Virus record (IMG/VR): IMGVR_UViG_2654587996_000006
Source of the DNA: a virus
Taxonomy: Duplodnaviria; Heunggongvirae; Uroviricota; Caudoviricetes
Direction: 5' to 3' (one strand)
Length of the DNA stretch: 37,884 nucleotides
Position numbers and translations under genes: made by a program
Notes under the pieces: model-generated
The model's input: only the letters and a program-made list of their open reading frames with translations
Told to the model about the DNA's origin: nothing
The model's database searches: none
Shown here: positions 268-37,884 of the stretch, one piece after another
Position numbering within the stretch: position 1 is the stretch's first letter
Layout of the letters: every line of letters starts with the position of its first letter

Positions 268-300
268 AAGCCCTCGCGTTGAGGGCTTTACTGATTTTTT
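268..300. terminator. hairpin aagccctc-gcgtt-gagggctt followed by a T-run; likely terminator between convergent grxA and ybjM
   Basis: 8-bp perfect stem, 5-nt loop, then tactgatttttt; overlaps the ybjM stop codon. Confidence 0.5.
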
Positions 301-665
301 CTGTGCTGTGGTTTAAACAAACTACTGATAAATAAGAAACACAGTGCCCCCAGCGCACACCAGAACACCGCGCTTAGTAACCATGCCAGCTCTTGCCAGA
401 ATGAGCGCGTCGGTGAAAAAAACAGCCGCATAATGAGCATCGAACAGGGTGCCGCCAGCATTGCGCCAAACAGAGGTTTCAGGACTTCTCTACGCTGTGA
501 AAAGAAGCTGGCCACTGCTCCAGGAAGAATGAAAAATAGCAAGCCGATTTCAGGATGCCCGGCAGCCCGAAAAGCGCCTTTCATGTGCGTCGCCAGAAAA
601 AGGCACACCACAATGAAGAGGACAAAACAGCAGATTGCCCCCGCCCAACGTTGTTTATGTTTCAC
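288..665 (-). CDS. ybjM: inner membrane protein YbjM
   Basis: 125-aa strongly hydrophobic ORF; position and size match E. coli ybjM between grxA and ybjL. Confidence 0.7.
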   Translation of the reverse strand: MKHKQRWAGAICCFVLFIVVCLFLATHMKGAFRAAGHPEIGLLFFILPGAVASFFSQRREVLKPLFGAMLAAPCSMLIMRLFFSPTRSFWQELAWLLSAVFWCALGALCFLFISSLFKPQHRKNQ

Positions 666-934: not shown

Positions 935-2620
935 GTGAATATAAACGTCGCCGAATTGTTAAATGGGAATTACATTCTGTTATTATTTGTGGTCCTCGCG
1001 CTTGGGCTATGTCTCGGAAAGTTACGACTTGGTTCGATCCAACTGGGTAATTCCATTGGCGTTTTAGTCGTATCGCTGTTATTAGGCCAACAACATTTCA
1101 GCATTAACACCGATGCGCTTAATCTTGGCTTTATGCTGTTTATTTTCTGCGTCGGGGTCGAAGCCGGACCGAACTTTTTTTCCATTTTTTTTCGCGATGG
1201 GAAAAATTACCTAATGTTAGCACTGGTGATGGTTGGCAGTGCGCTGGTGATCGCCTTAGGGTTAGGTAAGCTGTTTGGCTGGGATATTGGCCTGACGGCC
1301 GGTATGTTAGCAGGCTCTATGACGTCGACACCGGTTCTGGTCGGTGCTGGCGATACACTGCGTCATTCCGGCATGGAAAGCAGGCAGCTCTCACTGGCAC
1401 TGGATAATCTGAGCCTCGGGTATGCCTTAACCTATTTAATCGGTCTGGTGAGTTTGATTGTTGGTGCGCGTTACTTGCCGAAATTGCAGCATCAGGACTT
1501 ACAGACCAGCGCCCAGCAAATCGCCCGCGAACGTGGCCTGGACACTGATGCCAACCGTAAGGTTTATTTACCGGTGATCCGCGCCTATCGCGTCGGCCCG
1601 GAGCTGGTGGCCTGGACCGACGGCAAAAATCTGCGTGAACTGGGTATTTATCGACAAACCGGCTGCTACATTGAACGTATTCGACGTAACGGGATTCTGG
1701 CAAATCCAGACGGTGATGCCGTGCTACAAATGGGCGATGAAATAGCGTTGGTAGGCTATCCCGACGCCCATGCCCGACTCGATCCCAGCTTCCGTAACGG
1801 TAAAGAAGTTTTCGATCGTGACCTTCTCGACATGCGTATCGTCACTGAAGAAGTGGTCGTTAAAAACCATAACGCTGTAGGTAAACGTCTCGCACAACTG
1901 AAGTTGACCGATCACGGTTGCTTCCTTAACCGCGTCATTCGTAGCCAGATTGAGATGCCGATAGATGACAACGTCGTGCTTAACAAAGGTGACGTTTTAC
2001 AAGTCAGCGGTGATGCCCGTCGCGTAAAAACCATCGCCGATCGCATCGGCTTTATCTCGATTCACAGCCAGGTCACTGACCTGCTGGCATTTTGCGCCTT
2101 CTTTGTTATTGGGCTGATGATCGGGATGATCACCTTCCAGTTCAGCACATTCAGTTTCGGCATGGGGAACGCTGCCGGGTTGTTATTCGCCGGAATTATG
2201 CTGGGCTTTATGCGTGCTAACCACCCGACCTTCGGTTACATTCCGCAAGGTGCATTAAGCATGGTGAAAGAGTTCGGCTTGATGGTGTTTATGGCAGGCG
2301 TTGGTCTGAGCGCCGGTAGCGGTATTAATAACGGCCTGGGCGCGATTGGCGGTCAGATGTTGATTGCCGGATTAATTGTCAGTCTTGTGCCCGTGGTTAT
2401 CTGTTTCTTGTTCGGTGCTTATGTATTGCGAATGAACCGCGCACTGTTGTTCGGCGCAATGATGGGCGCACGCACCTGCGCGCCGGCAATGGAGATCATC
2501 AGTGATACAGCTCGCAGTAACATCCCTGCGCTGGGCTATGCGGGCACCTACGCAATCGCCAACGTCCTGCTGACGCTGGCAGGGACAATCATCGTCATGG
2601 TATGGCCAGGATTAGGATAA
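935..2620 (+). CDS. ybjL: putative transporter YbjL (AAE family)
   Basis: 561-aa ORF with hydrophobic N- and C-terminal halves separated by a soluble central region; recognised as E. coli YbjL. Confidence 0.85.
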
Positions 2621-2732
2621 AACTGAAGTTGCCCTGAAAATGAAATTTTTTTGCACAACCGCAGAACTTTTCCGCAGGGCATCAGTCTTAATTAATGCCA
2701 CTGCTTTTCTTTGATGTCCCCATTTTGTGGAG

Positions 2733-2775
2733 CCCATCAACCCCGCCATTTCGGTTCAAGGTTGATGGGTTTTTT
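2733..2775 (+). terminator. rho-independent terminator-like hairpin plus T6 downstream of ybjL, near the prophage right boundary
   Basis: cccatcaacc ... ggttgatggg (10-bp stem) followed by tttttt; may overlap the attR core. Confidence 0.45.
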
Positions 2776-2855
2776 GTTGCCTGAAATTTATACCGTTTAA
2801 AATCATGATGTTAGAAGCACTGTTTTTTAACGATGGCGACAAAATGGCGGCAGCG

Positions 2856-10143: not shown

Positions 10144-10710
10144 TCAGGGAGATTCATTGCTCTTATTTGCCGGAAATTTTCTATAAATGGTAGAAACGCC
10201 TACATCAAAAATCAGTGCAATACGCTGTCTTGATTCTCCGGCCTCGAGTAAACGCCCAATCTGTGCCCACTGTTCGGTGGTCAACTTAGGACGGCGTCCA
10301 CCTACTCTGCCTTTGGCACGAGCTGCAGCCAGCCCTGCCCTGGTACGTTCAACTATCAGTTCGCGTTCCATTTCAGCCAGGGCACCCATGACATGAAAAA
10401 AGAAACGGCCCATTGGGGTGCTGGTATCAATACTGTCAGTCAGGCTTCGGAAATTCACGCCTCGCTGACGCAACTCTTCTATCAGCGTAACAAGATGCCG
10501 CATACTGCGCCCCAACCTGTCCAGCTTCCAGACAACCAGCGTGTCTCCTGCCGATAGTGTCCTGAGCAGTTTTTTCAACCCTGGTCTGTCGGACTTAGTG
10601 CCACTGATTTTATCCTCAAAAATCCGCTCACATCCCGCGCAGTTCAGTGCATTACGTTGCAAATCGGTGTTCTGGTCATTTGTTGACACGCGTACATAGC
10701 CAATAAGCAT
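10144..10710 (-). CDS. pin: serine DNA invertase (Pin/Gin/Cin/Hin family)
   Basis: MLIGYVRVSTNDQNTDLQRNAL... with the catalytic Ser in YVRVST and a C-terminal HTH; nearly identical over its length to enteric invertases (closest by memory to e14 Pin). The ORF as given starts 2 codons earlier at 10716. Confidence 0.9.
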   Translation of the reverse strand: MLIGYVRVSTNDQNTDLQRNALNCAGCERIFEDKISGTKSDRPGLKKLLRTLSAGDTLVVWKLDRLGRSMRHLVTLIEELRQRGVNFRSLTDSIDTSTPMGRFFFHVMGALAEMERELIVERTRAGLAAARAKGRVGGRRPKLTTEQWAQIGRLLEAGESRQRIALIFDVGVSTIYRKFPANKSNESP

Positions 10711-10777
10711 GATCATCCCCCTGAATAAAAACCGGGGATGATGCCAGTTAGCCGTAATCGCTGCATTTTCTTAAACG

Positions 10778-10792
10778 TTGGTTTGGGAGAAG
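10778..10792. repeat. left inversion crossover site (inverted repeat TTGGTTTGGGAGAAG)
   Basis: 15-bp perfect inverted copy of 12625-12639; both copies encode GLGE in frame. Confidence 0.7.
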
Positions 10793-11127
10793 CGGCAAAA
10801 CGAAATGTGGGAACAGGGGAAAATCAGATACCAGATATGTCTGCATTCCCATCTGGCAAAAACTGGTTTCAGTTACCAAGTGGTCATATTGTCCAAATGT
10901 TTTCGATGAATGTTTATGGGGCGGACACTAACGGAACTACTGGTAATTTCCCTATTGCATTTCCTTCAGGTGCACTTGCTGTTAGTGCCTTATGGTCTGA
11001 TGGCACATTAACGGCTGCTCCGACCTTTAAACTTATGGGGTACACGACAACAAGGACATCAGTAACCTTAAAAGTATCAACCGGAAATGGTTTGTATGGA
11101 ACTATGATTATTGCAATAGGAAGATAA
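10793..11127 (+). CDS. alternative tail-fibre C-terminal segment (silent in this orientation, no start of its own)
   Basis: The open frame continues in frame from the crossover site (...VGLGE|AAKRNVG...); after inversion it would fuse to the constant N-terminal part of H. Confidence 0.55.
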
Positions 11128-11128
11128 T

Positions 11129-11572
11129 ATGAATCAATATATTTATTCCCCTTCGGAAAATGCATTTTATGCTGTTAATTTAAAAAATACTTATGAAGTA
11201 AATGGAACATGGCCCGCTGATGCATTAGATATTCCTGATAACATTTCTGTAAAATATATGGCGAAACCGCCACAAGGGAAAATCCGAGTTGCAGGGGTAA
11301 ATGGTTTTCCCACATGGGCTGAAATACCTCAACCATCACATGAAGAACTTATTCAACAGGCAGAATCAGAAAGACAATTATTGCTTAATCAGGCCAACGA
11401 ACACATGAACAGTAAGCAATGGCCAGGTAAAGCCGCTATTGGTCGTCTGAAAGGTGAGGAACTGGCGCAATATAATTTGTGGTTGGATTATCTGGACGCA
11501 CTGGAACTGGTCGATACTTCCAGTGCTCCAGATATTGAATGGCCTACGCCTCCGGCAGTTCAGGCCAGATGA
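11129..11572 (+). CDS. alternative tail-fibre assembly chaperone (Tfa/U')
   Basis: 147 aa; C-terminal ...LWLDYLDALELVDTSSAPDIEWPTPP matches the conserved C-terminus of G (...LDYIDAVTVTDTSTAPDVIWPELP). Confidence 0.75.
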   Translation: MNQYIYSPSENAFYAVNLKNTYEVNGTWPADALDIPDNISVKYMAKPPQGKIRVAGVNGFPTWAEIPQPSHEELIQQAESERQLLLNQANEHMNSKQWPGKAAIGRLKGEELAQYNLWLDYLDALELVDTSSAPDIEWPTPPAVQAR

Positions 11573-12146
11573 CATCCGGCGCGGTGCTGGTATCTGTTAC
11601 CGTCACCGCGTCAATGTAATCCAGCACGGCGTTAAGTCGGGTTGTTTCTGCCTGCGTCAACTTCCGTCCGGCCTGCAATTTCAGTTGAATCAGACTAATG
11701 GAAGCCATTGCAGTATCAATCAGTGACTGACGTTGTGCTTCTGCCGCGTCTACTGCGGCGCTATGCTGTGCCTCGGTATCCGTCACCCATTTCTCACCAT
11801 CCCATTTATCGTATGGCGTTAACGGGGCGATAGTGGTTGTTTTTTCGGGGTAATCACCCGGAGTTGTGATTTCTTTGGCGTCTCCCGTTTCGGTGTTATA
11901 GACGATTTCACCGCGATGGTCTGGCACATATTCCCATGAGTTTAAATCCATCGAACGGCAGATAGCATAACCCGCCTTATGTGTGCCAGGGGCATCTAAA
12001 CAGGAATATGCAGGGATACCGACGCCAACAGCAAGATATTCATTTGAAGTGGAAATATATTCTCGAGTTTCACCATCATAGTTATAGACGGTAATATTCC
12101 CTGCTTTGGTGGCGATAATCTCGCTATTTAATATGGCGTTATCCAT
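11544..12146 (-). CDS. G: tail-fibre assembly protein G
   Basis: 200 aa, start overlaps the H stop (TAATG); conserved Tfa C-terminal motif. Confidence 0.85.
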   Translation of the reverse strand: MDNAILNSEIIATKAGNITVYNYDGETREYISTSNEYLAVGVGIPAYSCLDAPGTHKAGYAICRSMDLNSWEYVPDHRGEIVYNTETGDAKEITTPGDYPEKTTTIAPLTPYDKWDGEKWVTDTEAQHSAAVDAAEAQRQSLIDTAMASISLIQLKLQAGRKLTQAETTRLNAVLDYIDAVTVTDTSTAPDVIWPELPEA

Positions 12147-22129: not shown

Positions 22130-23896
22130 ATGAACACCACACTGACACCCGCAGATCTCGATCCCCGTCGGCAGGCCATGCTGCTGTACTTTCAGGGATA
22201 CCGCGTCGCCCGCATTGCTGAAATGCTGGGCGAGAAAGTTGCAACCGTTCACAGCTGGAAAAAACGCGACAAGTGGGGTGACTATGGGCCGCTGGATCAG
22301 ATGCAGCTCACCACCGCCGCACGCTACTGCCAGCTCATTATGAAGGAGCACAAAGAAGGGAAAGATTTCAAAGAAATTGACCTGCTGGCACGCCAGTCTG
22401 AGCGCCACGCGCGGATCGGCAAGTTTAACAATGGCGGCAACGAAGCCGACTTAAACCCTAACGTTGCCAACCGCAACAAAGGCCCACGTCGTCAGCCGGA
22501 AAAGAATGTTTTCACCGATGAACAGATTGAGAAACTGGAAGAAATCTTCCATTCCTCTATGTTCAACTACCAGCGCCACTGGTGGGAAGCCGGAAAAACC
22601 AACCGCATCCGCAACCTGCTGAAGTCACGCCAGATCGGCGCGACCTTTTACTTTGCCCGTGAAGCCCTGATTGACGCCCTGCTGACCGGGCGTAACCAGA
22701 TTTTCCTTTCTGCCAGCAAGGCTCAGGCCCACGTCTTTAAACAGTACATCATCGACTTTGCCAAAGAAGTGGAGGTGGAGCTGAAAGGCGATCCGATGGT
22801 GCTTCCTAACGGGGCCACGCTTTACTTCCTCGGCACCAATGCCCGCACGGCCCAGAGTTACCACGGCAACCTGTATCTGGATGAATATTTCTGGATACCG
22901 AAATTCCAGGAGCTGCGCAAAGTGGCTTCCGGTATGGCTATTCACAAAAAATGGCGACAAACCTATTTTTCCACGCCATCCAGTCTGACACACAGTGCTT
23001 ATCCGTTCTGGTCCGGTGCGCTGTTCAACCGTGGGCGCAACAAAGCCGATAAGGTGGACATCGACCTGTCCCACAGCAATCTGGCCCCCGGCCTGCTGTG
23101 CGCAGACGGGCAATACCGCCAGATAGTCACCGTGGAAGATGCGGTGCGCGGCGGCTGTAACCTGTTCGACCTCGACCAGCTACGCATGGAGTACAGCCCA
23201 GACGAATACCAGAACCTGCTGATGTGCGAGTTTGTGGACGATCTCGCGTCCGTGTTTCCGCTCAGCGAGCTGCAGGCGTGCATGGTGGACAGTTGGGAAG
23301 TCTGGACCGACTTTCATGCACTGGCGCTGCGCCCGTTTGGCTGGCGCGAAGTGTGGATCGGTTATGACCCGGCAAAAGGTACGCAAAACGGCGACAGCGC
23401 TGGATGCGTGGTGGTGGCACCGCCAGCCGTGCCGGGTGGTAAGTTCCGCATTCTTGAGCGTCACCAGTGGCGCGGGATGGACTTCCGCGCCCAGGCTGAC
23501 GCCATCAAAAAACTTACCGAACAGTACAACGTGACTTATATCGGTATCGACTCAACCGGCGTTGGTCACGGGGTTTACGAGAACGTGAAAGCGTTCTTTC
23601 CTGCCGTCCGGGAGTTTGTCTACAACCCCAACGTTAAAAACGCCCTGGTACTCAAGGCCTACGACATTATCAGCCACCGCCGTCTGGAGTTTGACGCCGG
23701 GCACACCGACATTGCGCAGTCATTCATGGCAATCCGTCGCGCAACCACCGCCAGTGGCAACCGCCCAACCTATGAAGCCAGCCGCAGCGAAGAAGCCAGC
23801 CACGCCGATCTGGCCTGGGCAACAATGCACGCACTGTTTAACGAACCACTGCAGGGCGAGTCCGCCAATACCAGTAATATTGTGGAGATTTTTTGA
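22130..23896 (+). CDS. P: terminase ATPase (large) subunit P
   Basis: 588 aa; P2 gpP-like; divergent from O. Confidence 0.9.
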   Translation: MNTTLTPADLDPRRQAMLLYFQGYRVARIAEMLGEKVATVHSWKKRDKWGDYGPLDQMQLTTAARYCQLIMKEHKEGKDFKEIDLLARQSERHARIGKFNNGGNEADLNPNVANRNKGPRRQPEKNVFTDEQIEKLEEIFHSSMFNYQRHWWEAGKTNRIRNLLKSRQIGATFYFAREALIDALLTGRNQIFLSASKAQAHVFKQYIIDFAKEVEVELKGDPMVLPNGATLYFLGTNARTAQSYHGNLYLDEYFWIPKFQELRKVASGMAIHKKWRQTYFSTPSSLTHSAYPFWSGALFNRGRNKADKVDIDLSHSNLAPGLLCADGQYRQIVTVEDAVRGGCNLFDLDQLRMEYSPDEYQNLLMCEFVDDLASVFPLSELQACMVDSWEVWTDFHALALRPFGWREVWIGYDPAKGTQNGDSAGCVVVAPPAVPGGKFRILERHQWRGMDFRAQADAIKKLTEQYNVTYIGIDSTGVGHGVYENVKAFFPAVREFVYNPNVKNALVLKAYDIISHRRLEFDAGHTDIAQSFMAIRRATTASGNRPTYEASRSEEASHADLAWATMHALFNEPLQGESANTSNIVEIF

Positions 23897-24924
23897 TGGG
23901 AAAGAGTAAGAAGAACCGCGCTGCGTCGACGAACCAGATCCAGCATAAAAGTCAAACTACAGCCGAAGCATTCAGCTTCGGTGATCCCGTTCCTGTTCTG
24001 GACCGCCGCGAACTACTGGACTATGTGGAATGCGTACAGACAGATCGCTGGTATGAGCCGCCAGTAAGCTTTGACGGACTGGCGCGCACCTTCCGCGCCG
24101 CCGTGCATCACAGTTCACCAATTGCGGTGAAATGCAACATTCTGACCAGTACCTACATCCCCCACCCGCTGCTCAGCCAGCAGGCTTTTTCACGTTTTGT
24201 GCAGGACTATCTGGTATTTGGTAACGCCTACCTGGAGAAACGCACGAACCGCTTCGGTGAAGTTATCGCCCTTGAGCCTGCTCTGGCAAAATACACCCGA
24301 CGCGGGTTAGACCTGGATACCTACTGGTTTGTGCAATACGGCATGACTACGCAGCCGTATCAGTTCACGAAAGGCAGCATCTTTCATCTGATGGAACCGG
24401 ATATCAACCAGGAGATCTACGGCCTGCCCGGTTATCTTTCTGCCATTCCGTCAGCCCTGCTCAACGAGTCCGCCACGTTGTTCCGCCGTAAGTATTACAT
24501 TAACGGCAGCCATGCAGGCTTCATCATGTACATGACCGATGCCGCGCAGAATCAGGAGGATGTGAACAACCTCCGCAACGCGATGAAAAGCGCCAAAGGT
24601 CCAGGCAACTTCCGCAACCTGTTTATGTACTCACCTAACGGCAAAAAAGACGGGCTTCAGATCATCCCATTGTCAGAAGTCGCGGCGAAGGATGAATTTC
24701 TGAATATCAAAAATGTCAGCCGCGATGACATGATGGCTGCGCACCGCGTACCGCCGCAAATGATGGGGCTTATGCCAAGTAATGTTGGGGGATTTGGGGA
24801 TGTGGAAAAAGCGAGTTTAGTGTTTGTTCGCAATGAGTTAATCCCCCTTCAAAAAAGATTTGAGGAGCTGAATGAATGGATAGAAGAAACAGTAATTAAG
24901 TTTAATGAATATAAATTAAATTGA
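23893..24924 (+). CDS. Q: portal protein Q
   Basis: 343 aa (P2 Q is about 344 aa); 4-nt overlap with P. Confidence 0.9.
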   Translation: MMGKSKKNRAASTNQIQHKSQTTAEAFSFGDPVPVLDRRELLDYVECVQTDRWYEPPVSFDGLARTFRAAVHHSSPIAVKCNILTSTYIPHPLLSQQAFSRFVQDYLVFGNAYLEKRTNRFGEVIALEPALAKYTRRGLDLDTYWFVQYGMTTQPYQFTKGSIFHLMEPDINQEIYGLPGYLSAIPSALLNESATLFRRKYYINGSHAGFIMYMTDAAQNQEDVNNLRNAMKSAKGPGNFRNLFMYSPNGKKDGLQIIPLSEVAAKDEFLNIKNVSRDDMMAAHRVPPQMMGLMPSNVGGFGDVEKASLVFVRNELIPLQKRFEELNEWIEETVIKFNEYKLN

Positions 24925-24930
24925 TTAATT

Positions 24931-24962
24931 CAGTAGTAGCAACTTTAAAGGCGCTACTACTG
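24931..24962. terminator. hairpin between convergent Q and the KAP NTPase gene
   Basis: cagtagtagc / gctactactg 10-bp stem in an AT-rich context. Confidence 0.4.
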
Positions 24963-24970
24963 AACAAACA

Positions 24971-26635
24971 CTATAAATTGAATTTATGCATTCTTAACTC
25001 ATTCAATTTACTCTCTCTAGAAATCTTCATTAAAGCAGCCTTAGCTTTTATAGAAACAGATCTCGTTTTCTCATTTACATTACCAATACGACTAAATTTG
25101 AGACAAGTAGCAACGTGGGATGTTAAATGATTCCCATGCAAACTTTTAAAATAATGATAATAATCATCTTCAGTAGCGCTACTTAATACTTCTATATCAT
25201 CATCATTCCAGCCATTTTTTCCACTGAGCGCATCCAACACCTCACCTAAAGTGCGCTTGGGTGAATCAGTTAGATACACACCTTTAAATTTCTCAATGAT
25301 TTCTGCATCTTTGATTGGTCTAAAAAGATAAAAATTATCCAGATCAAATAACTCTATTTCACTTCGTCTTTCTTGAATATAATACGTAATCATCTCAGAT
25401 GCCTTTGTATCTTCACCTAGTTCACGGAAGACCCCAACAAGGCTATCAAGATCATTAGGAGATACTTGAGTTACACAATCCATAAAGCACTTATAAAAAT
25501 GAGAAACAACTTCTTCTACATTATCATCAAAACTATTATGGAATAAATCCCATGCACTTCTAAATGAGTTTGACTTTTTATTTTCTAAAGCCTGTTTATT
25601 TATAATTTTTATTGCCTCATTAAACTCTGTCATATCTATATAACCATTCCTGACTAGCTTTGCTATTTTCCTATCCAGCTCATCAACCCTTGTAAAATTA
25701 TAGCTCAGTAAAATATCCTTCCATTTTTTTTCTTCTTCTGTTACATCCTTTTTGCCTATTGAGTAAATACTTTCCATAGATTCGAGGAAATCCAAAGAGG
25801 GAACATCCTTATCTGATTTAGAGCAATAATAGGCCCAATTCATTAATACAACCGTATGCAAAAATTGCATTTTAACTTCACTTTCGCACTCTTCAAAAGC
25901 TCGCCATGCATTTTCTACGTTTCGCTCTATTTTCTTTAAAACTCTAATATTTTTGATGCCTAACGAAATAGTATATTGTGCTAACGGCTTATGAAAATCC
26001 TTACTATTATCATATGCTATCTGTGCAGATTCACTGGGCGTAGGTGAAAAATGCAACTCAATGTCAATTACTTTTTCTTTAAACTTTTCATAATCAGCAA
26101 CTTCTTTAGTACCATCATTGAGTAAAAGTATAACCTTACATTTCTTTTGTTCTTTTAACAAAGAAATAAGACCTAATACATCTTTAAGTTCTAATGACGA
26201 TCCTTTACGCTCTAAATCATCTATGCAAATTAATGAATCTGACACAGACATAAATGACCATGCTTCTATTGCAGGAGCGGCAGACTTTATATACGGCAGC
26301 TCTTTCAATTTACTCCACGAACCTCGCCCCAATATTTCAAGCATACCTAATGTATTTTTTCTTAAACTATCTAAACTTGGCTCATGTCCTATGGAGTCTT
26401 TTGAAACTGCATTTTCAAAAATGGAATATTTTAATCTATCTAACGAAGATATACCGAAAAGAGAGACATAGGAATAATGCGAAGCAGAAATCATATTTTG
26501 ACACTTTGCTTCCAGAAGAAACTTATTCCAACTAAATGTCTTACCAACTCCCCACTCTCCTTTAATTGCCATAACCGAAGGGGCTGATTTAGAAACAAAG
26601 TTTAGAATTTGTTCTCGTACCAAGCTTAGCGACAT
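24971..26635 (-). CDS. KAP-family P-loop NTPase (cargo gene, candidate anti-phage factor)
   Basis: 554 aa; Walker A GEWGVGKTF matches the KAP signature GxWGxGKT; Walker B LICIDDLER; strong RBS AAGGAG; visibly AT-rich compared with the flanking phage genes. Confidence 0.8.
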   Translation of the reverse strand: MSLSLVREQILNFVSKSAPSVMAIKGEWGVGKTFSWNKFLLEAKCQNMISASHYSYVSLFGISSLDRLKYSIFENAVSKDSIGHEPSLDSLRKNTLGMLEILGRGSWSKLKELPYIKSAAPAIEAWSFMSVSDSLICIDDLERKGSSLELKDVLGLISLLKEQKKCKVILLLNDGTKEVADYEKFKEKVIDIELHFSPTPSESAQIAYDNSKDFHKPLAQYTISLGIKNIRVLKKIERNVENAWRAFEECESEVKMQFLHTVVLMNWAYYCSKSDKDVPSLDFLESMESIYSIGKKDVTEEEKKWKDILLSYNFTRVDELDRKIAKLVRNGYIDMTEFNEAIKIINKQALENKKSNSFRSAWDLFHNSFDDNVEEVVSHFYKCFMDCVTQVSPNDLDSLVGVFRELGEDTKASEMITYYIQERRSEIELFDLDNFYLFRPIKDAEIIEKFKGVYLTDSPKRTLGEVLDALSGKNGWNDDDIEVLSSATEDDYYHYFKSLHGNHLTSHVATCLKFSRIGNVNEKTRSVSIKAKAALMKISRESKLNELRMHKFNL

Positions 26636-26728
26636 AACTCACTCCTTGATTGCGAATGTTAATTATATATTTTACCAAAAATCTTAATCACCACCTATAG
26701 AAAGGTGAAAGATGGGTGCTGGCGCGCG

Positions 26729-26747
26729 CTCGTATCCCCGCCACGCC
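26729..26747 (-). other. candidate cos cohesive-end site
   Basis: Minus strand reads GGCGTGGCGGGGATACGAG; the first 13 nt match my recollection of the 186/P2 19-nt cohesive end (GGCGTGGCGGGGAAAGCAT); GC-rich island in an AT-rich region, in the expected place between Q and the replication genes. Confidence 0.4.
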
Positions 26748-26786
26748 TGCCCGCTTTGTGTAGTGGTTTTCATGCACCTGCATGAC

Positions 26787-26806
26787 ATAAGCAAAAGCCC
26801 GCCAGC
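26787..26806 (-). terminator. hairpin gcccgcca-gctc-tggcgggc with a short U-run on the minus strand
   Basis: 8-bp GC stem; minus-strand continuation is TTTTGCTTATG; lies between the HNH gene and the KAP gene. Confidence 0.4.
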
Positions 26807-26929
26807 TCTGGCGGGCATCAGCAAAAACGATCCTCAAACGATCATGCGATTTCATGCGGCATAGACATGCGTTGGCAAAAATGTACGAAATACTCAGCTT
26901 ACAGGAAATGGTCTTTTTCCAACCTCCAG

Positions 26930-27649
26930 TTAGCCAAAGCAGAAACCAATATTGCAATTTGAAACTCCACAGTTGTGAAATTGATGTGGACCGACTCTTA
27001 GCTTGTGTTCGTCTCCTACAATCCGAGTCCCCTTAACCAACATATCTAATCTTTCCACAATCAATCTTTCAGGCGCATCAACTTTAATAATTAAACGAGG
27101 ACCTTTCCTTTTTTCTATAATAGTTATTCTAGGACCAACAACCTGAACATCCCAATGCCTTGCACTACAAACCCACTCATTCTTAATTAATTCAAGATTA
27201 ACAATACCTTGACTATCGTAAAATTTACCCGAAATAAGAAAAGCATTATTTTCTTTTTCAATGGTTAACAATGGCTCATTTTGAAACATTATTGGTACAG
27301 TACAGGATTCAAATGTCGCACCACCAAATATTATTGTTGGATGCCTATCAGAAAAGTCCAATATATCGGCCACATTCCCTTTTTGTAAGGCTGCAGGAGA
27401 TTCCATTGCTTTAATTATTTTCTCTTTAGAGTAAAGACGTTTCGTTACTTTCGCATGGCACGTAGGACAAAGTAGTGCTATTGCATTTGGAGAGTGCTCC
27501 TTTGCATCAGCGTATGTGGGAATTACATGCTCATACTCAACAATGGGAGAAGCACAAACAACGCAACCAAAGCCACAGCGCTGCCTTACCTCCAGTTTTA
27601 CAGGTTCAGGAATTGTTCTAGATAACCCATGCTTGTTAATAGTTGTCAT
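26930..27649 (-). CDS. HNH endonuclease-motif protein (cargo gene)
   Basis: 239 aa; N-terminal CGFGCVVC ... EYEHVIP ... N ... CPTCH, the Cys4/His-Asn-His layout of HNH nucleases; AT-rich. Confidence 0.7.
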   Translation of the reverse strand: MTTINKHGLSRTIPEPVKLEVRQRCGFGCVVCASPIVEYEHVIPTYADAKEHSPNAIALLCPTCHAKVTKRLYSKEKIIKAMESPAALQKGNVADILDFSDRHPTIIFGGATFESCTVPIMFQNEPLLTIEKENNAFLISGKFYDSQGIVNLELIKNEWVCSARHWDVQVVGPRITIIEKRKGPRLIIKVDAPERLIVERLDMLVKGTRIVGDEHKLRVGPHQFHNCGVSNCNIGFCFG

Positions 27650-27771
27650 AACCTTACCTTAAAACTTCGAGAAACCTTTTATATATTGATACTATATCAA
27701 CTAACGCCTCGCACAGCTCGTTGTTCAACCTTGCTGACGCCAGAAGCAAGTTCAGACGCCAGCAACGTTTC

Positions 27772-28005
27772 TTAATGCAGCCAGCTGTCGTCTTCCCACA
27801 CCTTCTGCATAATTTTCATCACTTGTTTTCTTTCTTCGTCCAGTTGCAGTCCGGTCAGTTCCACACCGTTAGAGCTACCTTTACGGATACGAATTACCGT
27901 TTTGGGATACAAGGGGCGCAGATTGCGGTAAAGCTCGGATTCAAGGGCGTCCAGGGTAGACTGGCTAATCTTCTGCTCTTTATCGATCATTATTTCAATG
28001 CGCAT
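27772..28005 (-). CDS. DinI-like protein (Tum-type SOS antirepressor module?)
   Basis: ORF 27772-28077 trimmed to MRIEIMIDK (RBS AGGTGA); alignable with E. coli DinI (MRIEVTIAK...QETWE); downstream of a LexA box. Confidence 0.7.
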   Translation of the reverse strand: MRIEIMIDKEQKISQSTLDALESELYRNLRPLYPKTVIRIRKGSSNGVELTGLQLDEERKQVMKIMQKVWEDDSWLH

Positions 28006-28015
28006 AAAAGTCACC

Positions 28016-28204
28016 TCAACTGATGACATCCATTGAGCGGTTGTATTCGTGGGTTCTGATTTTTGCCATGAGTTCATCAGTCAATTCAGAAACCCACTGC
28101 AGAGCCAGCCCCTTCTCTTCATCACTACACTCACTAGCCGCGACAAGCTTAAGAAAAAAATCAATGCGCTGGAGCTTCAAAGACTCCAAAAAATAGTCCT
28201 GCAT
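28016..28204 (-). CDS. small protein (62 aa) co-transcribed with the DinI-like gene
   Basis: ORF 28016-28306 trimmed to MQDYFLESLK, which has the RBS GGAGGA; the LexA box lies about 40 bp upstream. Confidence 0.55.
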   Translation of the reverse strand: MQDYFLESLKLQRIDFFLKLVAASECSDEEKGLALQWVSELTDELMAKIRTHEYNRSMDVIS

Positions 28205-28245
28205 TTTTCCTCCTATGACACCACACACAATACTGTATGTATAAC

Positions 28246-28265
28246 CACTGTTTATATTTACAGTA
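28246..28265 (-). promoter_or_regulatory. LexA box (SOS operator) with promoter
   Basis: caCTGTttatatttACAGta, a perfect CTGT-N8-ACAG with an AT-rich spacer; on the minus strand it is preceded by TTTACA and TATACT promoter-like hexamers. Confidence 0.75.
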
Positions 28266-28357: not shown

Positions 28358-30772
28358 TTAATACAGGTTCCGCCACTTATCATCTTCCCGCAAACGCTGG
28401 TTCCGATAGAAGATACGCAGGCCTGCTCCTGACGGAATACTGCCGCCGCGAAGGAGTAAATCGACCTCTTTCTCGCTACCATCAAATCCTCTGGACTTCA
28501 GCTCATAGACGAGCTGCAGTCGCTGATGGTCTGTAATTCGCTGTTTGTAGTCTTTACGCCGTATCGGTTTAACCAGGCGTAGCCTTGCTGCCAGTTCCCG
28601 GCGCTCTTTTTTGCTCATACTGTGCAGGAAATCGTGCAACTCCTTGTCATCCATGCTGATAATATCCGTTCTGGGGTCCCCATCTGCTGATTTATCTTTC
28701 TCCTGTTGGTTCAAATTTTCAGCAAGGGGACAGTTATTGCCACGAGTCCAAGGGGCGCAAGCGCCCTGGTCGGCTACCGCCTCCTGAACGTCAACGGCTT
28801 TACGAACCATTTTCCACTTCACTGCATGAGTGCAGATCTTGCCCTCTGCAATGGGTGACCAGATGCCATAAATACGAATACCGTGATCGCCATAAGCGGT
28901 CGGCTCTTCGTTAATTTCATAAGCTGTTCTGATAAGGTGATATTTGCGGGGAACCAGTACGCCGCCCTGCTTCATGATGTAGGTGGCAAAACAGCCAGCA
29001 TCAGCGGCAGCCAGGATGGCATCAAGGCGCGGGTCATCCAGTACCGGCGCACCTGCTTTTTTGTCACCCTGTTGCCTTGCCGCCTGACCAGCCAGCAAGC
29101 GAAGTTCACGGTACGCCTGACGCCCCGGAATACCAAAGAAGCGGAACTGCTGAACACGATGCAGAGACGCCCAGGCATTAACGTATTCGGCGTTATCACG
29201 CAGGGATTTACCCGTTTCCTTGCTGATCTCGCCAGCCAGACCACGTCCGTCAATGTTCTTACTGATGTATTTCGCGATGTAGCTTGTCGGCGTTCCTTTG
29301 CGCGGGTTTATCAGCTCAGACTTAAAGCGTGGACCCGTGTTATTGCCCAGTTCCTCGCGGTCTTCACGGATGGCAAACTTACGCAACAATGCAGTAATGG
29401 CGCGGCGGTCTTTTTTGCGCATGAAACACATGAGATGCCAGTGCACAGTACCGTCATGGTGCGGCTCAGCCACCCGCACGCCATACCAGCGCAACCCGGC
29501 TTTGTGCATAGCCTTACGAAATGCAGCAAACATGCCGACCAGATAATCGCTGCTTTGTCTTACCGTCGCATTTGTCCAGGTTGGGTTTGGTCTGCCGTTA
29601 TTGAGCGTAGAATGGAAACGTGACGGACAGGTAATGGTGTAGAAAACGGCGCAGTCACCACGCATTTCCGCGATAAGCTCCAGACCTTTAACACAGGCCA
29701 TCATCTCATTGCGGCGGTGCGCCGGGTTGCTGCTGCTGGCGTTTACCACGTCTTCCATATCCAGCGTGTCGCCGTCTTCGTTCACCAGTTCATGAGAACG
29801 GAAAAACTCCAGCGACTTGCGGCGCTGCTCACGTTTATGCGTCACTGCTTCATAGCTGACATAGGGAGATGCTTTTTTGCTGACCAGGCAGACAGCACGC
29901 AACTGCTCTTCCCGCCATTCGCAACGTATCTTCCACAATTTTCGATACCACCAGTCGGCGCAAAGCATACGTGCCAGCGAACCCGGTATGAGTTCATAGG
30001 GCACGGGTTTGCGGCGGTTTCTTTTCCGACGGAGTTTCTCAAACGCAGGCGGGATAACATCCAGACGCAGGGTTTCCGCTGCCACCTTTTCCCATGTCTT
30101 GCGGATTTCTTCTGGCTTAACGTCATCGGAGGCATACAAATCACCACAAGCGGCCTCAAGACACATGCTCATATGCGCTGCTACCAGGGTGGACAGGCGT
30201 TTTACCTGATCCTGACTCATTTCAGGCAGGATCAGCAGGCCCTCAAGCCCTTGATGGCTTGCCATAAAACGGAAAGAAGCGGATAGCTGACTGTCGCGTA
30301 CATACTCCAGTCGCTCCAGACATGGCTTAATCGTCTCACGCAAATAGCGGGAATAAGCCTTTGGCCTGCCCAGGCTGCTGAAGTATTCGATACGTTGCAT
30401 CAGCGGCTTGCTGATGTGGGTGGGCTGGGCGCTGACGTCCGCCAGAATGACCATGTCCGGGTTAAAACGCTGCTGCTCATGCGCCAGCTTTGCCCGACTA
30501 ATGAGATTATCCTGCTCCATTTCGCGCTGGACAGGATCACGGGATTCATTAAAGAAATAACGCTCCCAGACCTGCTCACTCAGTGCATCGCGGCGCAGCT
30601 GTTCCTGCTCGTTATCGGCAGCGTACAGAGTGATCATGTTTGAAAGTGCAGACTCCGGCGCAACTTCCGCCGGGTCCAGATAAGGGTTAATGGCCTTTTT
30701 CGGGCCGTTCCATGAAAATGCTGCAGCGGCCTCGTTAAAGCCGCTAGAGTTGCTCATATCGTCATGACTCAT
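28358..30772 (-). CDS. A: replication initiation protein A (HUH rolling-circle endonuclease)
   Basis: 804 aa; HUH-type motif GTVHWHLM and tyrosine motif YIAKYISK; P2 gpA-like. Confidence 0.85.
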
Positions 30773-34552: not shown

Positions 34553-35209
34553 GTGAAGGCTCCAAAAGAAGACTTCTGGTTCAACTTTAAGATCGCTTTT
34601 GGAATCTGTCAACGAATTTTGGATTTCTTTGGAGGATTTGTGGATTTCAATAGCGGCGGTAAGAAAGCCATAGAACGTTTGGTTGAAGCATACGGGTTCG
34701 GTACCCGTCAGGCTCTCTGTGATCATTTAGGTGTTTCTAAGAGCACCATGGCAACGCGTTATATGCGTGATATTTTTCCGGCAGATTGGGTAATCCAGTG
34801 CGCCCTTGAAACGGGTACCTCGCTTAATTGGCTAACAACAGGGCATGGTTCAAAGCAAGCATCAGCAAATACAAATACTATAGAAGTAGTAAAATATTTA
34901 TTGTCTGATGGAGCATTGCAGGAAGACGGTTTTTATATTTTTGATAAGGGATTTCTACCCTCTACGTTTAAAAAACCTTTTGTCATCACAGATAACAATT
35001 CTGAATTTATTTGTGATAAAGAATTTGATGATATACGTGATGGTAAATGGGTAATAAGTATTGATGGCGAAATAACAATCCGCGACATCACTCGTTTACC
35101 CGGTGGAAGAATTTTCGTTGAAGGTGGAAACAGAGCCTTCGAGTGCAAGATAGAAGATGTTGAAATAATTGGAAAAATTATAAGCTTAACAGTTAAGTAT
35201 GTTAGATAA
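34553..35209 (+). CDS. cI: CI immunity repressor (186 type)
   Basis: N-terminal HTH region (RLVEAYGF...ALETGTSLNWLTTGHG); the real start may be the in-frame GTG at 34640 (about 189 aa, preceded by GGAGG), which would leave a longer apl-cI switch region. Confidence 0.7.
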   Translation: MKAPKEDFWFNFKIAFGICQRILDFFGGFVDFNSGGKKAIERLVEAYGFGTRQALCDHLGVSKSTMATRYMRDIFPADWVIQCALETGTSLNWLTTGHGSKQASANTNTIEVVKYLLSDGALQEDGFYIFDKGFLPSTFKKPFVITDNNSEFICDKEFDDIRDGKWVISIDGEITIRDITRLPGGRIFVEGGNRAFECKIEDVEIIGKIISLTVKYVR

Positions 35210-35420: not shown

Positions 35421-36752
35421 ATGAGCACAGATATAACTTTCGATATACGTGATGAATATAAAAGAAAAGCCATTGCAGAAAAAATAATAAGTTTGCTAGA
35501 GTCTAATATTCCTGTTTCACCTATGGTCATAGATGGGGACTGGGGGACTGGAAAAACAGAGTTTTCAAAAAAGTTAGCATCCTTAATTGAAATAAACTCG
35601 ACCAATCATAAAGTAGTTTATATAGATGCTTTTACTGAAGATCACAACGATGCTCCCATACTTACAATAATGGCCGCAATTGCAGCTCTATATAATAGCG
35701 ATGAAAAAAAGGAATTAATATCTAAGGCATTGCCAGCCCTCAGATTCGGACTTAAGACTGTACTCAAAGCTGGTGCTGGTTGGGTATTAAAACAAAATGC
35801 GGATGAAATTAATGAGGAATTTGAAGAGGTTATCAAAGACGCTGCAAATTCAGCTATCGATGGAACCATCGAGGCTCTGTTAGAAGATCATATCGAGGCA
35901 CAAAAGAACGTTCTTGCTCTAAAAGAAGTACTAACCAAATTAGCTGGAGAAAGTAAACTAACAATAATTATAGATGAGTTAGACAGATGTAAGCCTAGTT
36001 TTGCCATTTCTATTATTGAAAATATAAAACATGTTTTTGATATAAAAAACATTAACTTTTTATTAATTGCAAACACAACTCAACTAAAAGCATCCATAAA
36101 TCATATCTATGGCTCTTCTGTAGACTCCAACCGTTATCTTGACAAATTTATAAAATTTACATACAGCCTTCCTGTTACCTTTAAGGAAGATAATTATAAT
36201 GACACTTTAACTTCCAAAAATCATTGGATGATGCTATGTGAGCAATCTGAAAGGCTGACCGCTGCAGTAGAAGCCAGCGAAGATATTTTCTTACAGTTCA
36301 TTGAAAGTAGAAAATTATCATTACGTGAGGTTGAAACACTTGCTAGATATGTTGAAATATACCAACTACTATCAGGCGACAAAATTAGCAACAAATATAT
36401 TTATGGATATTGTTATTACAGGACTCTAGCGATAATAATCTACACTTTTAACCGAGAGTTAGCTCTCAACTTTCTTGAAGATAAAGTTGATGCTCAATCA
36501 ATCATGAAATTGTTTGGTTTATCTAAATTTTCATATCAAACAAGTGAATATAATGTAGATAATTATGAATATGCTATATTTGGAATAGTTTACAAATACT
36601 TATCTGAAAACTCATCTCTTTTACCTGCTGAGGAAAATATAAAAAGACAATGGGCAGAAATGAGTGAATACCATTTTTTAAAAGGTGGTGGCGGTATTGG
36701 TGAACCAACAAATATTGTGAAAGATGCTTTAAAAGTTTTTTTACTTCAGTGA
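35421..36752 (+). CDS. KAP-family P-loop NTPase, second copy (cargo gene, candidate anti-phage factor)
   Basis: 443 aa; Walker A IDGDWGTGKTEF matches the KAP signature; Walker B LTIIIDELDRCKP; AT-rich; lies between cI and int. Confidence 0.8.
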   Translation: MSTDITFDIRDEYKRKAIAEKIISLLESNIPVSPMVIDGDWGTGKTEFSKKLASLIEINSTNHKVVYIDAFTEDHNDAPILTIMAAIAALYNSDEKKELISKALPALRFGLKTVLKAGAGWVLKQNADEINEEFEEVIKDAANSAIDGTIEALLEDHIEAQKNVLALKEVLTKLAGESKLTIIIDELDRCKPSFAISIIENIKHVFDIKNINFLLIANTTQLKASINHIYGSSVDSNRYLDKFIKFTYSLPVTFKEDNYNDTLTSKNHWMMLCEQSERLTAAVEASEDIFLQFIESRKLSLREVETLARYVEIYQLLSGDKISNKYIYGYCYYRTLAIIIYTFNRELALNFLEDKVDAQSIMKLFGLSKFSYQTSEYNVDNYEYAIFGIVYKYLSENSSLLPAEENIKRQWAEMSEYHFLKGGGGIGEPTNIVKDALKVFLLQ

Positions 36753-36831
36753 TATGTATGGCTATACAAATTCATACATTGACACTGGTTATATATACAG
36801 TAAAAATGCTCTCCACTGGAGGGCATTTTTT

Positions 36832-37884
36832 ATGGCTGTACGAAAACTCACCACAGGAAAATGGCTTTGCGAATGTTACCCCGCCGGACGTAGTGGGCGT
36901 CGTGTGCGTAAACAATTCGCCACCAAAGGCGAAGCACTGGCTTTTGAGCGTCACACGATGGAAGAAACCGAAGCAAAGCCCTGGCTGGGTGAATCAGTGG
37001 ATCGTCGAACACTGAAAGACGTGGTTGAGCTATGGTTCAAACTACATGGTAAATCTCTGACTGCTGGGCAGCATGTCTATGACAAATTGCTGCTGATGGT
37101 TGACGCTCTGGGCAATCCCCTTGCAACTGATCTAACCTCTAAAATGTTTGCCCACTATCGAGATAAACGCCTGACAGGTGAGATCTACTTCAGCGAGAAA
37201 TGGAAGAAAGGAGCAAGCCCGGTCACCATTAACCTGGAGCAAAGCTATCTAAGTAGTGTTTTTAGCGAACTATCCCGCCTGGGCGAATGGTCGTATCCGA
37301 ACCCACTGGAGAACATGCGAAAATTCACCATCGCAGAAAAAGAGATGGCATGGCTTACCCATGAGCAGATTGTTGAATTACTGGCTGATTGCAAACGTCA
37401 GGACCCAATTCTGGCACTGGTAGTTAAGATATGCTTAAGCACAGGCGCACGCTGGCGAGAAGCCGTAAATCTTACCCGCTCACAGGTGACCAAATACCGA
37501 ATTACCTTTGTAAGAACGAAGGGGAAGAAAAACAGAAGCATCCCTATCAGTAAAGAGCTTTACGAAGAGATCATGGCGCTTGATGGGTTCAATTTCTTCA
37601 CAGACTGCTATTTTCAATTTTTATCCGTGATGGAAAAAACGTCTATCGTGCTCCCTCGCGGTCAACTCACACACGTTCTGCGCCATACGTTTGCGGCGCA
37701 CTTCATGATGTCGGGTGGAAACATTCTGGCCTTACAAAAAATTCTCGGACACCACGATATAAAAATGACTATGCGTTACGCACATCTGGCACCGGATCAT
37801 CTGGAAACGGCGCTCCGTTTCAATCCTCTGGCAACGCTGCCAAGTGGCGACAAAGTGGCGGCAGCGGTTGGCATTACCCCGTAA
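36832..37884 (+). CDS. int: tyrosine integrase
   Basis: ORF 36754-37884 trimmed to MAVRKLTTGKW (RBS GGAGGG); C-terminal catalytic region ...HVLRHTFAAHFMMSGG...HHDIKMTMRYAHL with the R/H/R/Y residues. Confidence 0.85.
   Translation: MAVRKLTTGKWLCECYPAGRSGRRVRKQFATKGEALAFERHTMEETEAKPWLGESVDRRTLKDVVELWFKLHGKSLTAGQHVYDKLLLMVDALGNPLATDLTSKMFAHYRDKRLTGEIYFSEKWKKGASPVTINLEQSYLSSVFSELSRLGEWSYPNPLENMRKFTIAEKEMAWLTHEQIVELLADCKRQDPILALVVKICLSTGARWREAVNLTRSQVTKYRITFVRTKGKKNRSIPISKELYEEIMALDGFNFFTDCYFQFLSVMEKTSIVLPRGQLTHVLRHTFAAHFMMSGGNILALQKILGHHDIKMTMRYAHLAPDHLETALRFNPLATLPSGDKVAAAVGITP

Follow-up and report, generated by a model that had tools for sequence, protein, structure and literature searches.

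Two candidate defence cassettes on either side of the cos site in a Fels-2/186-like P2-family prophage of Escherichia coli

Gene content of the locus and position of the cos site

The sequence analysed here, IMG/VR virus record IMGVR_UViG_2654587996_000006 with a length of 37,884 nucleotides (nt; the whole stretch is referred to as the window), is a Fels-2/186-like P2-family prophage. It is 100% identical to a P2-family prophage of E. coli CI5 (NZ_CP011018.1), and its nearest sequenced phages are of the Fels-2/RE2010 type from Salmonella, Klebsiella and Escherichia. This study deals with the 2.8 kb between the portal gene and the DinI-like gene, where the minus strand carries two intact open reading frames (ORFs), one for a KAP-type P-loop NTPase of 554 amino acids (aa) and one for an HNH nuclease of 239 aa, with the phage cos site between them. 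According to our analysis, the two genes are independent cassettes, probably with a defence function, in two slots that flank cos. In the RefSeq annotation of CI5 the larger gene is labelled “hypothetical protein” and the smaller one “HNH endonuclease”. A first-pass annotation, made from the sequence alone, had described this gene pair and noted that it is visibly more AT-rich than the phage backbone. The coordinates, lengths and motifs it gave for the pair were all reproduced, and the GC contents of 0.332 (KAP gene) and 0.381 (HNH gene), as opposed to 0.52-0.56 in the portal, terminase and gpA genes and about 0.55 in the backbone, agree with the second observation. Chance ORFs can be excluded, because full-length conservation is seen in more than 1300 homologues of the KAP protein and 269 of the HNH protein. 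The coordinates of all features are listed in Table 1.

The cos site was located from an alignment of the sequence between the two genes to phage 186 and Salmonella phage SEN8, whose termini are annotated. What stands left of the junction corresponds to the right ends of these phages, and what stands right of it to their left ends. On the minus strand, the sequence reads AAAGCGGGCA up to the junction and continues with GGCGTGGCGGGGATACGAG, the 19-nt cohesive end. The left end of SEN8 starts with the same 19 bases, and 186 agrees in 12 of 12 leading bases. A search with the P2 cohesive-end sequence, in which up to 3 mismatches were allowed, gave no match. The cos site belongs to the 186/SEN8 type. 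At the extreme left of virion DNA, between cosL and the portal gene, lies the KAP gene, and at the extreme right, with the DinI-like gene on one side and cosR on the other, the HNH gene. They are neighbours only when the phage DNA is circular or present as a prophage.

The boundaries of the exchangeable regions were set by comparison with two E. coli prophages, 23-AB02114, in which homology ends at position 24879 and restarts at 26721, and EC100, in which it ends at 26870 and restarts at 27762. This defines a left variable slot from the portal gene to cos and a right variable slot from cos to the DinI-like gene, separated by a conserved cos segment of 150 base pairs (bp) that about 1255 of the 5426 complete E. 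coli genomes share. The left position of P2 and 186 is empty, its 167-177 bp containing the tQ/tW terminator alone, and on the maps of these phages the right position holds tin/old and orf97, respectively. The first-pass annotation had assigned both genes to the old/tin position of P2. Since cos lies between the genes and P2 tin/old and 186 orf97 are found at the right position, this is correct for the HNH gene alone, while the KAP gene lies on the other side of cos.

The left exchangeable module also includes the AT-rich 3′ end of the portal gene. Because the last 45 nt of this gene belong to it, the C-terminal tail of the portal protein varies with the cargo; the protein has 343 aa in the window and 344 aa in 23-AB02114. 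Between the convergent stop codons of the portal and KAP genes there is a hairpin with a 12-bp stem (folding energies of -18.8 and -20.8 kcal/mol, z-scores of -6.7 and -6.1), which is probably a bidirectional terminator in a position analogous to tQ of P2 and tW of 186. Another hairpin was described between the two cargo genes in the first-pass annotation. It exists, but not at 26787-26806 as given there; its actual position is ten nucleotides further on. It is GC-rich, is followed by a TTTTGCTT tail, appeared terminator-like in the terminator scan and folds with -20.1 kcal/mol (z-score -4.0), and its stem sequence CGCCAGAGCTGGCG recurs near the right end of 186. As it lies within the conserved cos segment, it is a feature of the backbone and part of neither cassette, and it may serve termination, packaging, or both. 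A hairpin about 50-70 bp inside the right end, with a shared stem core, recurs in the 186-type cos flank, and a similar inverted repeat of other sequence was recognised by eye in the P2/P4-type cos flanks (preprint Dataset E1). The right-end hairpin may be a packaging element, instead of or besides a terminator. Rfam and tRNA scans of the locus revealed no RNA elements.

Table 1. Features of the cos-flanking locus and of the remaining prophage and host flank (positions in the window)
Feature	Position	Strand	GC content	Remarks
ybjM	288-665			host flank
ybjL	935-2620			host flank; aspartate:alanine antiporter gene
RybB	2700-2778			host flank; small RNA, Rfam 105 bits
Resolvase-invertase	10144-10716	minus		Hin/Gin type
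Tail-fibre tip	10738-11127	plus		Gp53-like
Tail-fibre-assembly gene	11129-11572	plus		opposed to the next gene
Tail-fibre-assembly gene	11544-12146	minus		opposed to the previous gene
Portal gene	23893-24924
Left variable slot	24880-26720		0.328	portal to cos; includes the final 45 nt of the portal ORF (24880-24924)
Hairpin	24929-24940, 24953-24964			arms of the 12-bp stem
KAP gene	24971-26635	minus	0.332	soluble KAP-type P-loop NTPase, 554 aa
Ribosome-binding site of KAP gene	26642-26647	minus		AAGGAG
-10 element of KAP gene	26662-26667	minus		TATAAT, perfect; weak -35
Conserved cos segment	26721-26870		0.567	150 bp, separates the slots
Cohesive end	26729-26747	minus		19 nt
Hairpin	26797-26816	minus		terminator-like
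Right variable slot	26871-27761		0.387	cos to DinI-like gene; position of P2 tin/old and 186 orf97
HNH gene	26930-27649	minus	0.381	HNH nuclease, 239 aa
Palindrome	27686-27700	minus		TTGATATAGTATCAA, sequence inspection
Extended -10 candidate	27691-27699			within the palindrome
SOS-type operon	27772-28265	minus		backbone
DinI-like gene	27772-28005	minus		Pfam DinI 1e-22; RefSeq annotation
62-aa ORF	28016-28204	minus		in the SOS-type operon
LexA box	28246-28265	minus		TACTGTAAATATAAACAGTG; only CTGT-N8-ACAG site in the window
gpA	28358-30772			replication gene A
CI repressor gene	34553-35209
443-aa KAP NTPase gene	35421-36752	plus	0.327
Integrase gene	36754-37884

The two proteins and their expression signals

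The 554-aa protein carries the Walker A motif GEWGVGKT at residues 26-33 and the Walker B motif ICIDDLER at residues 136-143. Its earlier assignment to the KAP family was confirmed by the Pfam profile KAP_NTPase (PF07693), which matches residues 10-208 with 23.9 bits at a curated cutoff of 20. In 50 homologues, G26, G29, G31, K32, T33, D139, D140, E142 and R143 are invariant. The family comprises more than 1300 proteins of a steady length of 554-560 aa, is distributed throughout the Gammaproteobacteria and is annotated as hypothetical or P-loop NTPase. In the AlphaFold model, with a predicted local distance difference test (pLDDT) score of 85, an N-terminal alpha/beta NTPase is followed by an all-helical part from about residue 200. 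Residues 1 to about 290 correspond to an ORC/Cdc6-like NTPase with lid, for which the ORC ATPase module is the best fold match, and the all-helical residues from about 300 to 554 gave no fold match. No transmembrane segment was recognised, the highest 19-residue Kyte-Doolittle window being 1.13, and the model shows the insert that separates Walker A from Walker B (residues 102-123) as a soluble loop, with low confidence. Classical KAP proteins, as described by Aravind et al. in 2004, reportedly have transmembrane helices in or beside the P-loop domain, a character that the 554-aa protein does not share.

The invariant residues of the C-terminal part are mainly W, G, L, F, D and N and form no evident catalytic set, and this part is less conserved (49%) than the NTPase (64%). 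The view of the protein as a nucleotide switch joined to a recognition module is based on these two properties. A profile search of PDB sequences revealed no relatives, and an NCBIfam search returned nothing useful for either of the two proteins. Among the PADLOC models, the only match of the KAP protein is the candidate family PDC-S49 (1e-29, residues 23-387 of 554), and PifA, Tmn and QatA are not matched. The first-pass annotation had not recognised the gene pair as a named defence system. For the KAP protein this has to be qualified in view of its partial match to PDC-S49 and the homology of its NTPase half to Reve, an experimentally validated defence protein discussed below. Neither the KAP nor the HNH protein matches Old or Tin in PADLOC, in line with the earlier statement that they resemble neither.

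The 239-aa protein has the N-terminal motif CGFGCVVC...EYEH...CPTCH, and the HNH motif recognised earlier by eye is supported by the Pfam HNH profile (PF01844), with 24.8 bits at a cutoff of 21.4. A word-indexed search yielded 269 matches, a family of proteins of 239-260 aa in which conservation is complete for C29, C32, Y39, H41, H52 and C61 and nearly complete for C64, giving a CCCC zinc site and a catalytic histidine. The structural model (pLDDT 94.4) consists of a zinc-finger HNH domain from about residue 14 to 85-90 and a beta domain of about 18 strands (residues 92-239). The HNH domain superposes on those of GVE2, McrA and ZRANB3, and its nearest structural neighbours are defence nucleases such as Cap5, McrA, TagI and VcaM4I.

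The beta domain was followed up separately. With this domain alone, the word-indexed search found close relatives only, and an exhaustive HMMER search gave 443 clusters at 50% identity. In nearly all of them the domain starts at about residue 93-110, and in every case with a Pfam match it is preceded by HNH; some of the proteins add C-terminal TPR, CxxCxxCC or SEC-C modules. The idea of a freely swapped sensor module was therefore abandoned, as the 10 proteins sampled gave it no support and the domain is essentially always found behind HNH. Several proteins of 140-190 aa (P0243, P0245, P0251, P0256, P0259 and others) match the beta domain only, from about residues 14-20; they could represent the domain as a gene of its own or result from truncated gene calls. 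Conservation is lower in the C-terminal part (36%) than in the catalytic part (56%), and this, together with the obligate link of the beta domain to HNH, leads us to read the domain as a specificity module.

Both genes are preceded by candidate expression signals. The ribosome-binding site and the TATAAT region reported earlier upstream of the KAP gene are present, and the TATAAT is about 60 bp from the cohesive end; a consensus promoter scan did not return this promoter, because its -35 element is poor. Upstream of the HNH gene, a palindrome holds the extended -10 candidate TGATATAGT, 37 nt before the start codon, and is possibly its own promoter or an operator. Further upstream lies an SOS-type operon of the backbone, composed of a LexA box, a 62-aa ORF and the DinI-like gene. 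The layout is similar in 186, where p95 with its LexA site drives tum and orf97 and transcription ends at t95b. The terminator scan and folding showed no U-tract terminator between the DinI-like and HNH genes, where a hairpin containing G·U pairs is present, and read-through from the LexA-controlled DinI operon into the HNH gene is possible on this arrangement.

Exchange of cargo in the two slots

The cos-proximal region between gpA and gpQ of P2-like phages is known as a hotspot for anti-phage systems (Rousset 2022). The first-pass annotation had placed the gene pair in this hotspot and proposed a comparison across related prophages. The location was borne out: gpA, the portal gene and cos could all be placed, the content between them varies, and the accessions of both proteins are listed in the hotspot table of Rousset. 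For the comparison, 80 sister contigs from IMG/VR with a portal identity of 93-96% (loci L027-L106) were used, and representative ORFs of their slots were compared with PADLOC and Pfam models. In 75 of the contigs, the length of the left slot was between 555 and 3557 bp, and its sequences formed 49 clusters. For the right slot, 24 clusters with lengths of 737-3346 bp were distinguished, and 19 loci have an empty one of 82 bp. Among the 66 loci for which both slots were available, 57 different left-right combinations were counted. Matches in the left slot include retron reverse transcriptases, AbiU, LmuB, AriA, AIPR, DprA, SieB, TIR, SIR2, Cap4 nuclease, GmrSD and KAP_NTPase, and those in the right slot Septu PtuAB, SIR2-HerA, Hp1-3, PD-T4-7, DarTG, bSEFIR, a PifA-like protein and a genuine PDC-S49. 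Both sides of cos are thus a defence hotspot.

The two slots differ in their organisation. Of the left-slot ORFs of at least 90 aa in the 48 cluster representatives, 74 of 76 are convergent with the portal gene, running from cos towards it, and no member of this lineage has an empty left slot (at least 555 bp), as opposed to P2 and 186. In the right slot the orientation of the ORFs is mixed (20 vs 13). Homologues of the KAP gene with 42-44% identity occupy the same slot in the same orientation in three sister phages, as does a homologue with 60% identity in Pantoea prophage remnants. The HNH gene is present in none of the 80 sister contigs. The KAP allele was found in 3 and the HNH gene in 21 of the 5426 E. 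coli genomes (all copies at least 99% identical), and since the cos segment occurs in about 1255 of them, both genes are variable cargo and do not belong to the core.

About 128 E. coli genomes have, at the ybjL site that the window prophage also occupies, a decayed P2-like prophage without most of its structural genes. In the example of E. coli KBN10P04869 (L107; NZ_CP026473.1, 3165997-3176643), the portal gene is kept, with the gene for a 614-aa “P-loop NTPase fold protein” beside it, and so are the gene for an 883-aa protein with an HsdR-N domain and gpA. The 614-aa gene has about 64% nucleotide identity to part of the KAP gene. This suggests that hotspot cargo is kept after prophage decay, and the Pantoea remnants show a similar pattern.

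The question raised by the first-pass annotation, whether the two genes form one system or two, can be answered from their distribution: the KAP and HNH genes are two independent single-gene cargo cassettes. Among the E. coli genomes, only CI5 contains both. EC100 has the KAP cassette with an LA2681-type HEPN protein in the right slot, and the left slot of 23-AB02114, which has the HNH cassette, holds two small genes that are unrelated. Table S5A of Rousset (2022) catalogues both exact proteins in P2-hotspot arrangements, untested, WP_001518830 as “KAP_NTPase” beside HEPN_LA2681 and WP_000207842 as “hypothetical” with several different partners including a TIR-like protein; in the literature search, the accessions were found in this supplementary table alone and in none of the main texts. 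KAP homologues stand alone by the portal gene in the Pantoea prophage remnants and in islands of Shewanella and Pseudomonas, and HNH homologues do so on Acinetobacter plasmids, in a Rhizobacter chromosome and, in lambdoid prophages, behind the O/P replication genes. In the contexts inspected, in other taxa as well as in the sister contigs, genes of the two families were never neighbours outside CI5. A two-gene system with the NTPase as sensor and the nuclease as effector would fit the side-by-side, co-oriented position of the genes in CI5, the frequent pairing of an ATPase with HNH in defence systems such as Septu, and the synergy of Tmn, a KAP protein, with nuclease-containing systems. However, cos and a terminator-like hairpin separate the genes, each of them otherwise has different neighbours, and no conserved partner emerged, so that this explanation is largely refuted by the distribution and we regard it as highly improbable.

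Apart from the two slots, the prophage contains a second, unrelated KAP NTPase of 443 aa, whose gene is enclosed by the CI repressor gene and that for the integrase. It matches Pfam KAP_NTPase (1.4e-53) and, over its full length, PADLOC PDC-S20 (2.4e-171), with weaker matches to PifA and QatA, and resembles the 554-aa protein only at the level of the Walker motifs. Its site is a third cargo slot of the cI-int type, as noted in K139-like Vibrio phages (Rousset 2022). The region 10144-12146, in which the GC content drops locally, resembles an invertible tail-fibre segment. The prophage is inserted next to rybB/ybjL, since the host flank (288-2778) holds ybjM, ybjL and RybB.

Function of the two cassettes and comparison with known systems

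As a model for the left cassette, we propose a soluble KAP/ORC-like NTPase that is probably expressed from its own promoter next to cos and probably acts as a one-protein anti-phage factor. Its Walker A/B NTPase would be a nucleotide-driven switch, and its more variable helical C-terminal half would recognise the target or act as effector, a division that has been proposed for Reve, EF_KAP and Tmn; the effector activity itself cannot be named. For the right cassette, we propose an HNH nuclease in which the catalytic and zinc ligands are intact and the beta-rich C-terminal domain could determine the target. Most likely this nuclease is selective for phage DNA and either depends on modification, in the manner of type IV enzymes, or is gated by a trigger, as selectivity for modified or phage-specific DNA, or gating by a phage trigger, would be the simplest way for an HNH nuclease to spare the host. 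Its transcription may come from its own promoter and by read-through from the DinI operon, as for 186 orf97. Members of the HNH family also occur as lone cargo in lambdoid prophages and on plasmids, which was counted in favour of a defence function.

Several points weigh against this interpretation. The defence role of both proteins, plausible as it is, is deduced from location and family, and not all cargo of P2 hotspots serves defence, partition systems and toxins being examples (Rousset 2022). The KAP protein has no recognisable effector domain, and its similarity to Reve and PDC-S49 is partial and limited to the NTPase half. For the HNH protein, the PADLOC model mREase_IV gave a non-significant E-value of 0.0095, and a modified-base reader domain, as expected for a type IV (McrA-like) enzyme, was not recognised. 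Its beta domain has no fold match or structural analogue, the BFVD viral library matching the HNH core only, and the proposed specificity mechanism is for this reason a guess. The promoters and the SOS read-through, finally, are deduced from sequence features.

Two other functions have to be considered. The cargo could have a non-defence role, such as an SOS-induced function at prophage induction, counter-defence, or modulation of lysogeny or host physiology. This would agree with the position of the HNH gene downstream of the LexA-boxed DinI operon without a strong terminator in between, with the partition systems and toxins just mentioned, and with a KAP C-terminal half that lacks catalytic-looking invariant residues. 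We nevertheless regard it as unlikely for either gene, because the great majority of the recognisable alleles in both slots are defence systems, the closest characterised relatives of the KAP protein are defence proteins, and 186 Orf97, encoded at the same position as the HNH protein, blocks 186 infection when expressed from a plasmid. Less likely still is that the HNH protein is a selfish or housekeeping phage nuclease, namely a free-standing homing endonuclease or a packaging nuclease that assists the terminase at cos. HNH proteins that assist the terminase in packaging occur in HK97-like phages. In favour of this, the HNH gene is 180 bp from cos, HNH homing endonucleases are common in phages and are found among the structural neighbours, the spread of the family over mobile elements is sporadic, and the beta domain is always joined to HNH, as a DNA-binding domain would be. 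But with 21 carriers against about 1255 genomes with the cos segment, the gene is not needed for packaging, and on these numbers, together with its absence from the sister contigs, the packaging function was rejected. In addition, the slot of the relatives holds unrelated defence cargo rather than showing presence or absence at one target site, and homologues occur on plasmids and chromosomal islands with no terminase nearby.

If both proteins restrict phages, as the preferred defence interpretation implies, two compact one-gene immunity proteins would join the P2/P4 hotspot repertoire, one from the mechanistically still opaque KAP-NTPase class and one with an uncharacterised beta domain. Their practical value is that of a cloning target, and the conceptual surprise would be small. 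Already known are the hotspot itself, the catalogue entry of both proteins (Rousset 2022) and, from recent preprints, KAP-type single-gene defence. What is new is the placement of cos between the genes, which shows two independently exchanging slots, the inclusion of the KAP protein in a large family of soluble proteins with PDC-S49 and Reve as distant relatives, and the recognition of the HNH family as bearing an unmatched beta domain. The division by cos affects how hotspot “systems” are delimited computationally, and candidate operons should not merge genes from its opposite sides. A bolder view, which we advance only tentatively and hold to be rather doubtful as a whole, is that the P2-family hotspot consists of two cassette sites with different rules, the left one always filled and transcriptionally polar and the right one often empty and of mixed orientation, with the cos segment as recombination anchor, and that both families are new one-protein immunities. 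In this joint view, the soluble KAP/ORC-like family would be a widespread effector-less immunity protein distinct from Reve, Tmn and PifA, and the HNH protein with its beta domain would be a new nuclease that confers immunity on its own and reads DNA or a trigger through a fold not seen before.

The HNH gene fills the slot of tin/old in P2 and of orf97 in 186, between the replication/DinI genes and cosR. Like the HNH gene, 186 orf97 is co-oriented with the DinI/tum operon, but the proteins show no sequence similarity (BLASTP E >2). The arrangement of an HNH domain with a specificity or sensor domain in a single polypeptide is found in EcoKMcrA, TagI, VcaM4I, ScoMcrA and CBASS Cap5, and the closest structural neighbours of the HNH domain belong to this set.

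For the KAP protein, a true member of PDC-S49 is encoded in the right slot of a sister phage (L087) and matches the model over its full length with 4e-160, whereas the window protein falls short of a near full-length, high-scoring match, and profile alignment with hhalign (96%) covers only its residues 1-288. No mention of PDC-S49 was found in the main texts of the literature searched. Anti-phage activity that depends on the Walker B motif has been shown for other KAP NTPases in which an uncharacterised C-terminal region follows, among them EF_KAP, whose behaviour is not that of abortive infection (2025 preprint), and Tmn protects against T1. EF_KAP, Tmn and PifA share with the KAP protein the order of a Walker A/B NTPase followed by a region of uncharacterised function; EF_KAP and Tmn have transmembrane helices, and the 554-aa protein has none.

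The closest parallel is Reve, a single-gene KAP P-loop system from the hotspot of P4 satellites, whose protection against Drexlerviridae lies between 10^2- and >10^5-fold and reaches up to 10^5-10^6-fold (bioRxiv 10.64898/2026.02.27.708500), and whose sequence was recovered from the supplementary data of this 2026 preprint. Both are single genes in a cos-adjacent P2/P4 hotspot and encode proteins of similar size (586 aa in Reve, 554 aa here) that have no transmembrane segment, share identical GEWGVGKT and IDDLER motifs and find their best fold match in the ORC ATPase module. Homology is confined to about the first 240-270 residues, with 23-27% identity (BLASTP 5e-10; hhalign 97.6%, residues 6-270), and the C-terminal halves do not align. 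The kinship is at the level of a superfamily or clade. Reve is carried by a satellite and the KAP protein by a helper phage, and for Reve a phenotype has been measured. As the kinship to both Reve and PDC-S49 stops at the NTPase half, the 554-aa KAP protein represents a new family within this recently recognised class.

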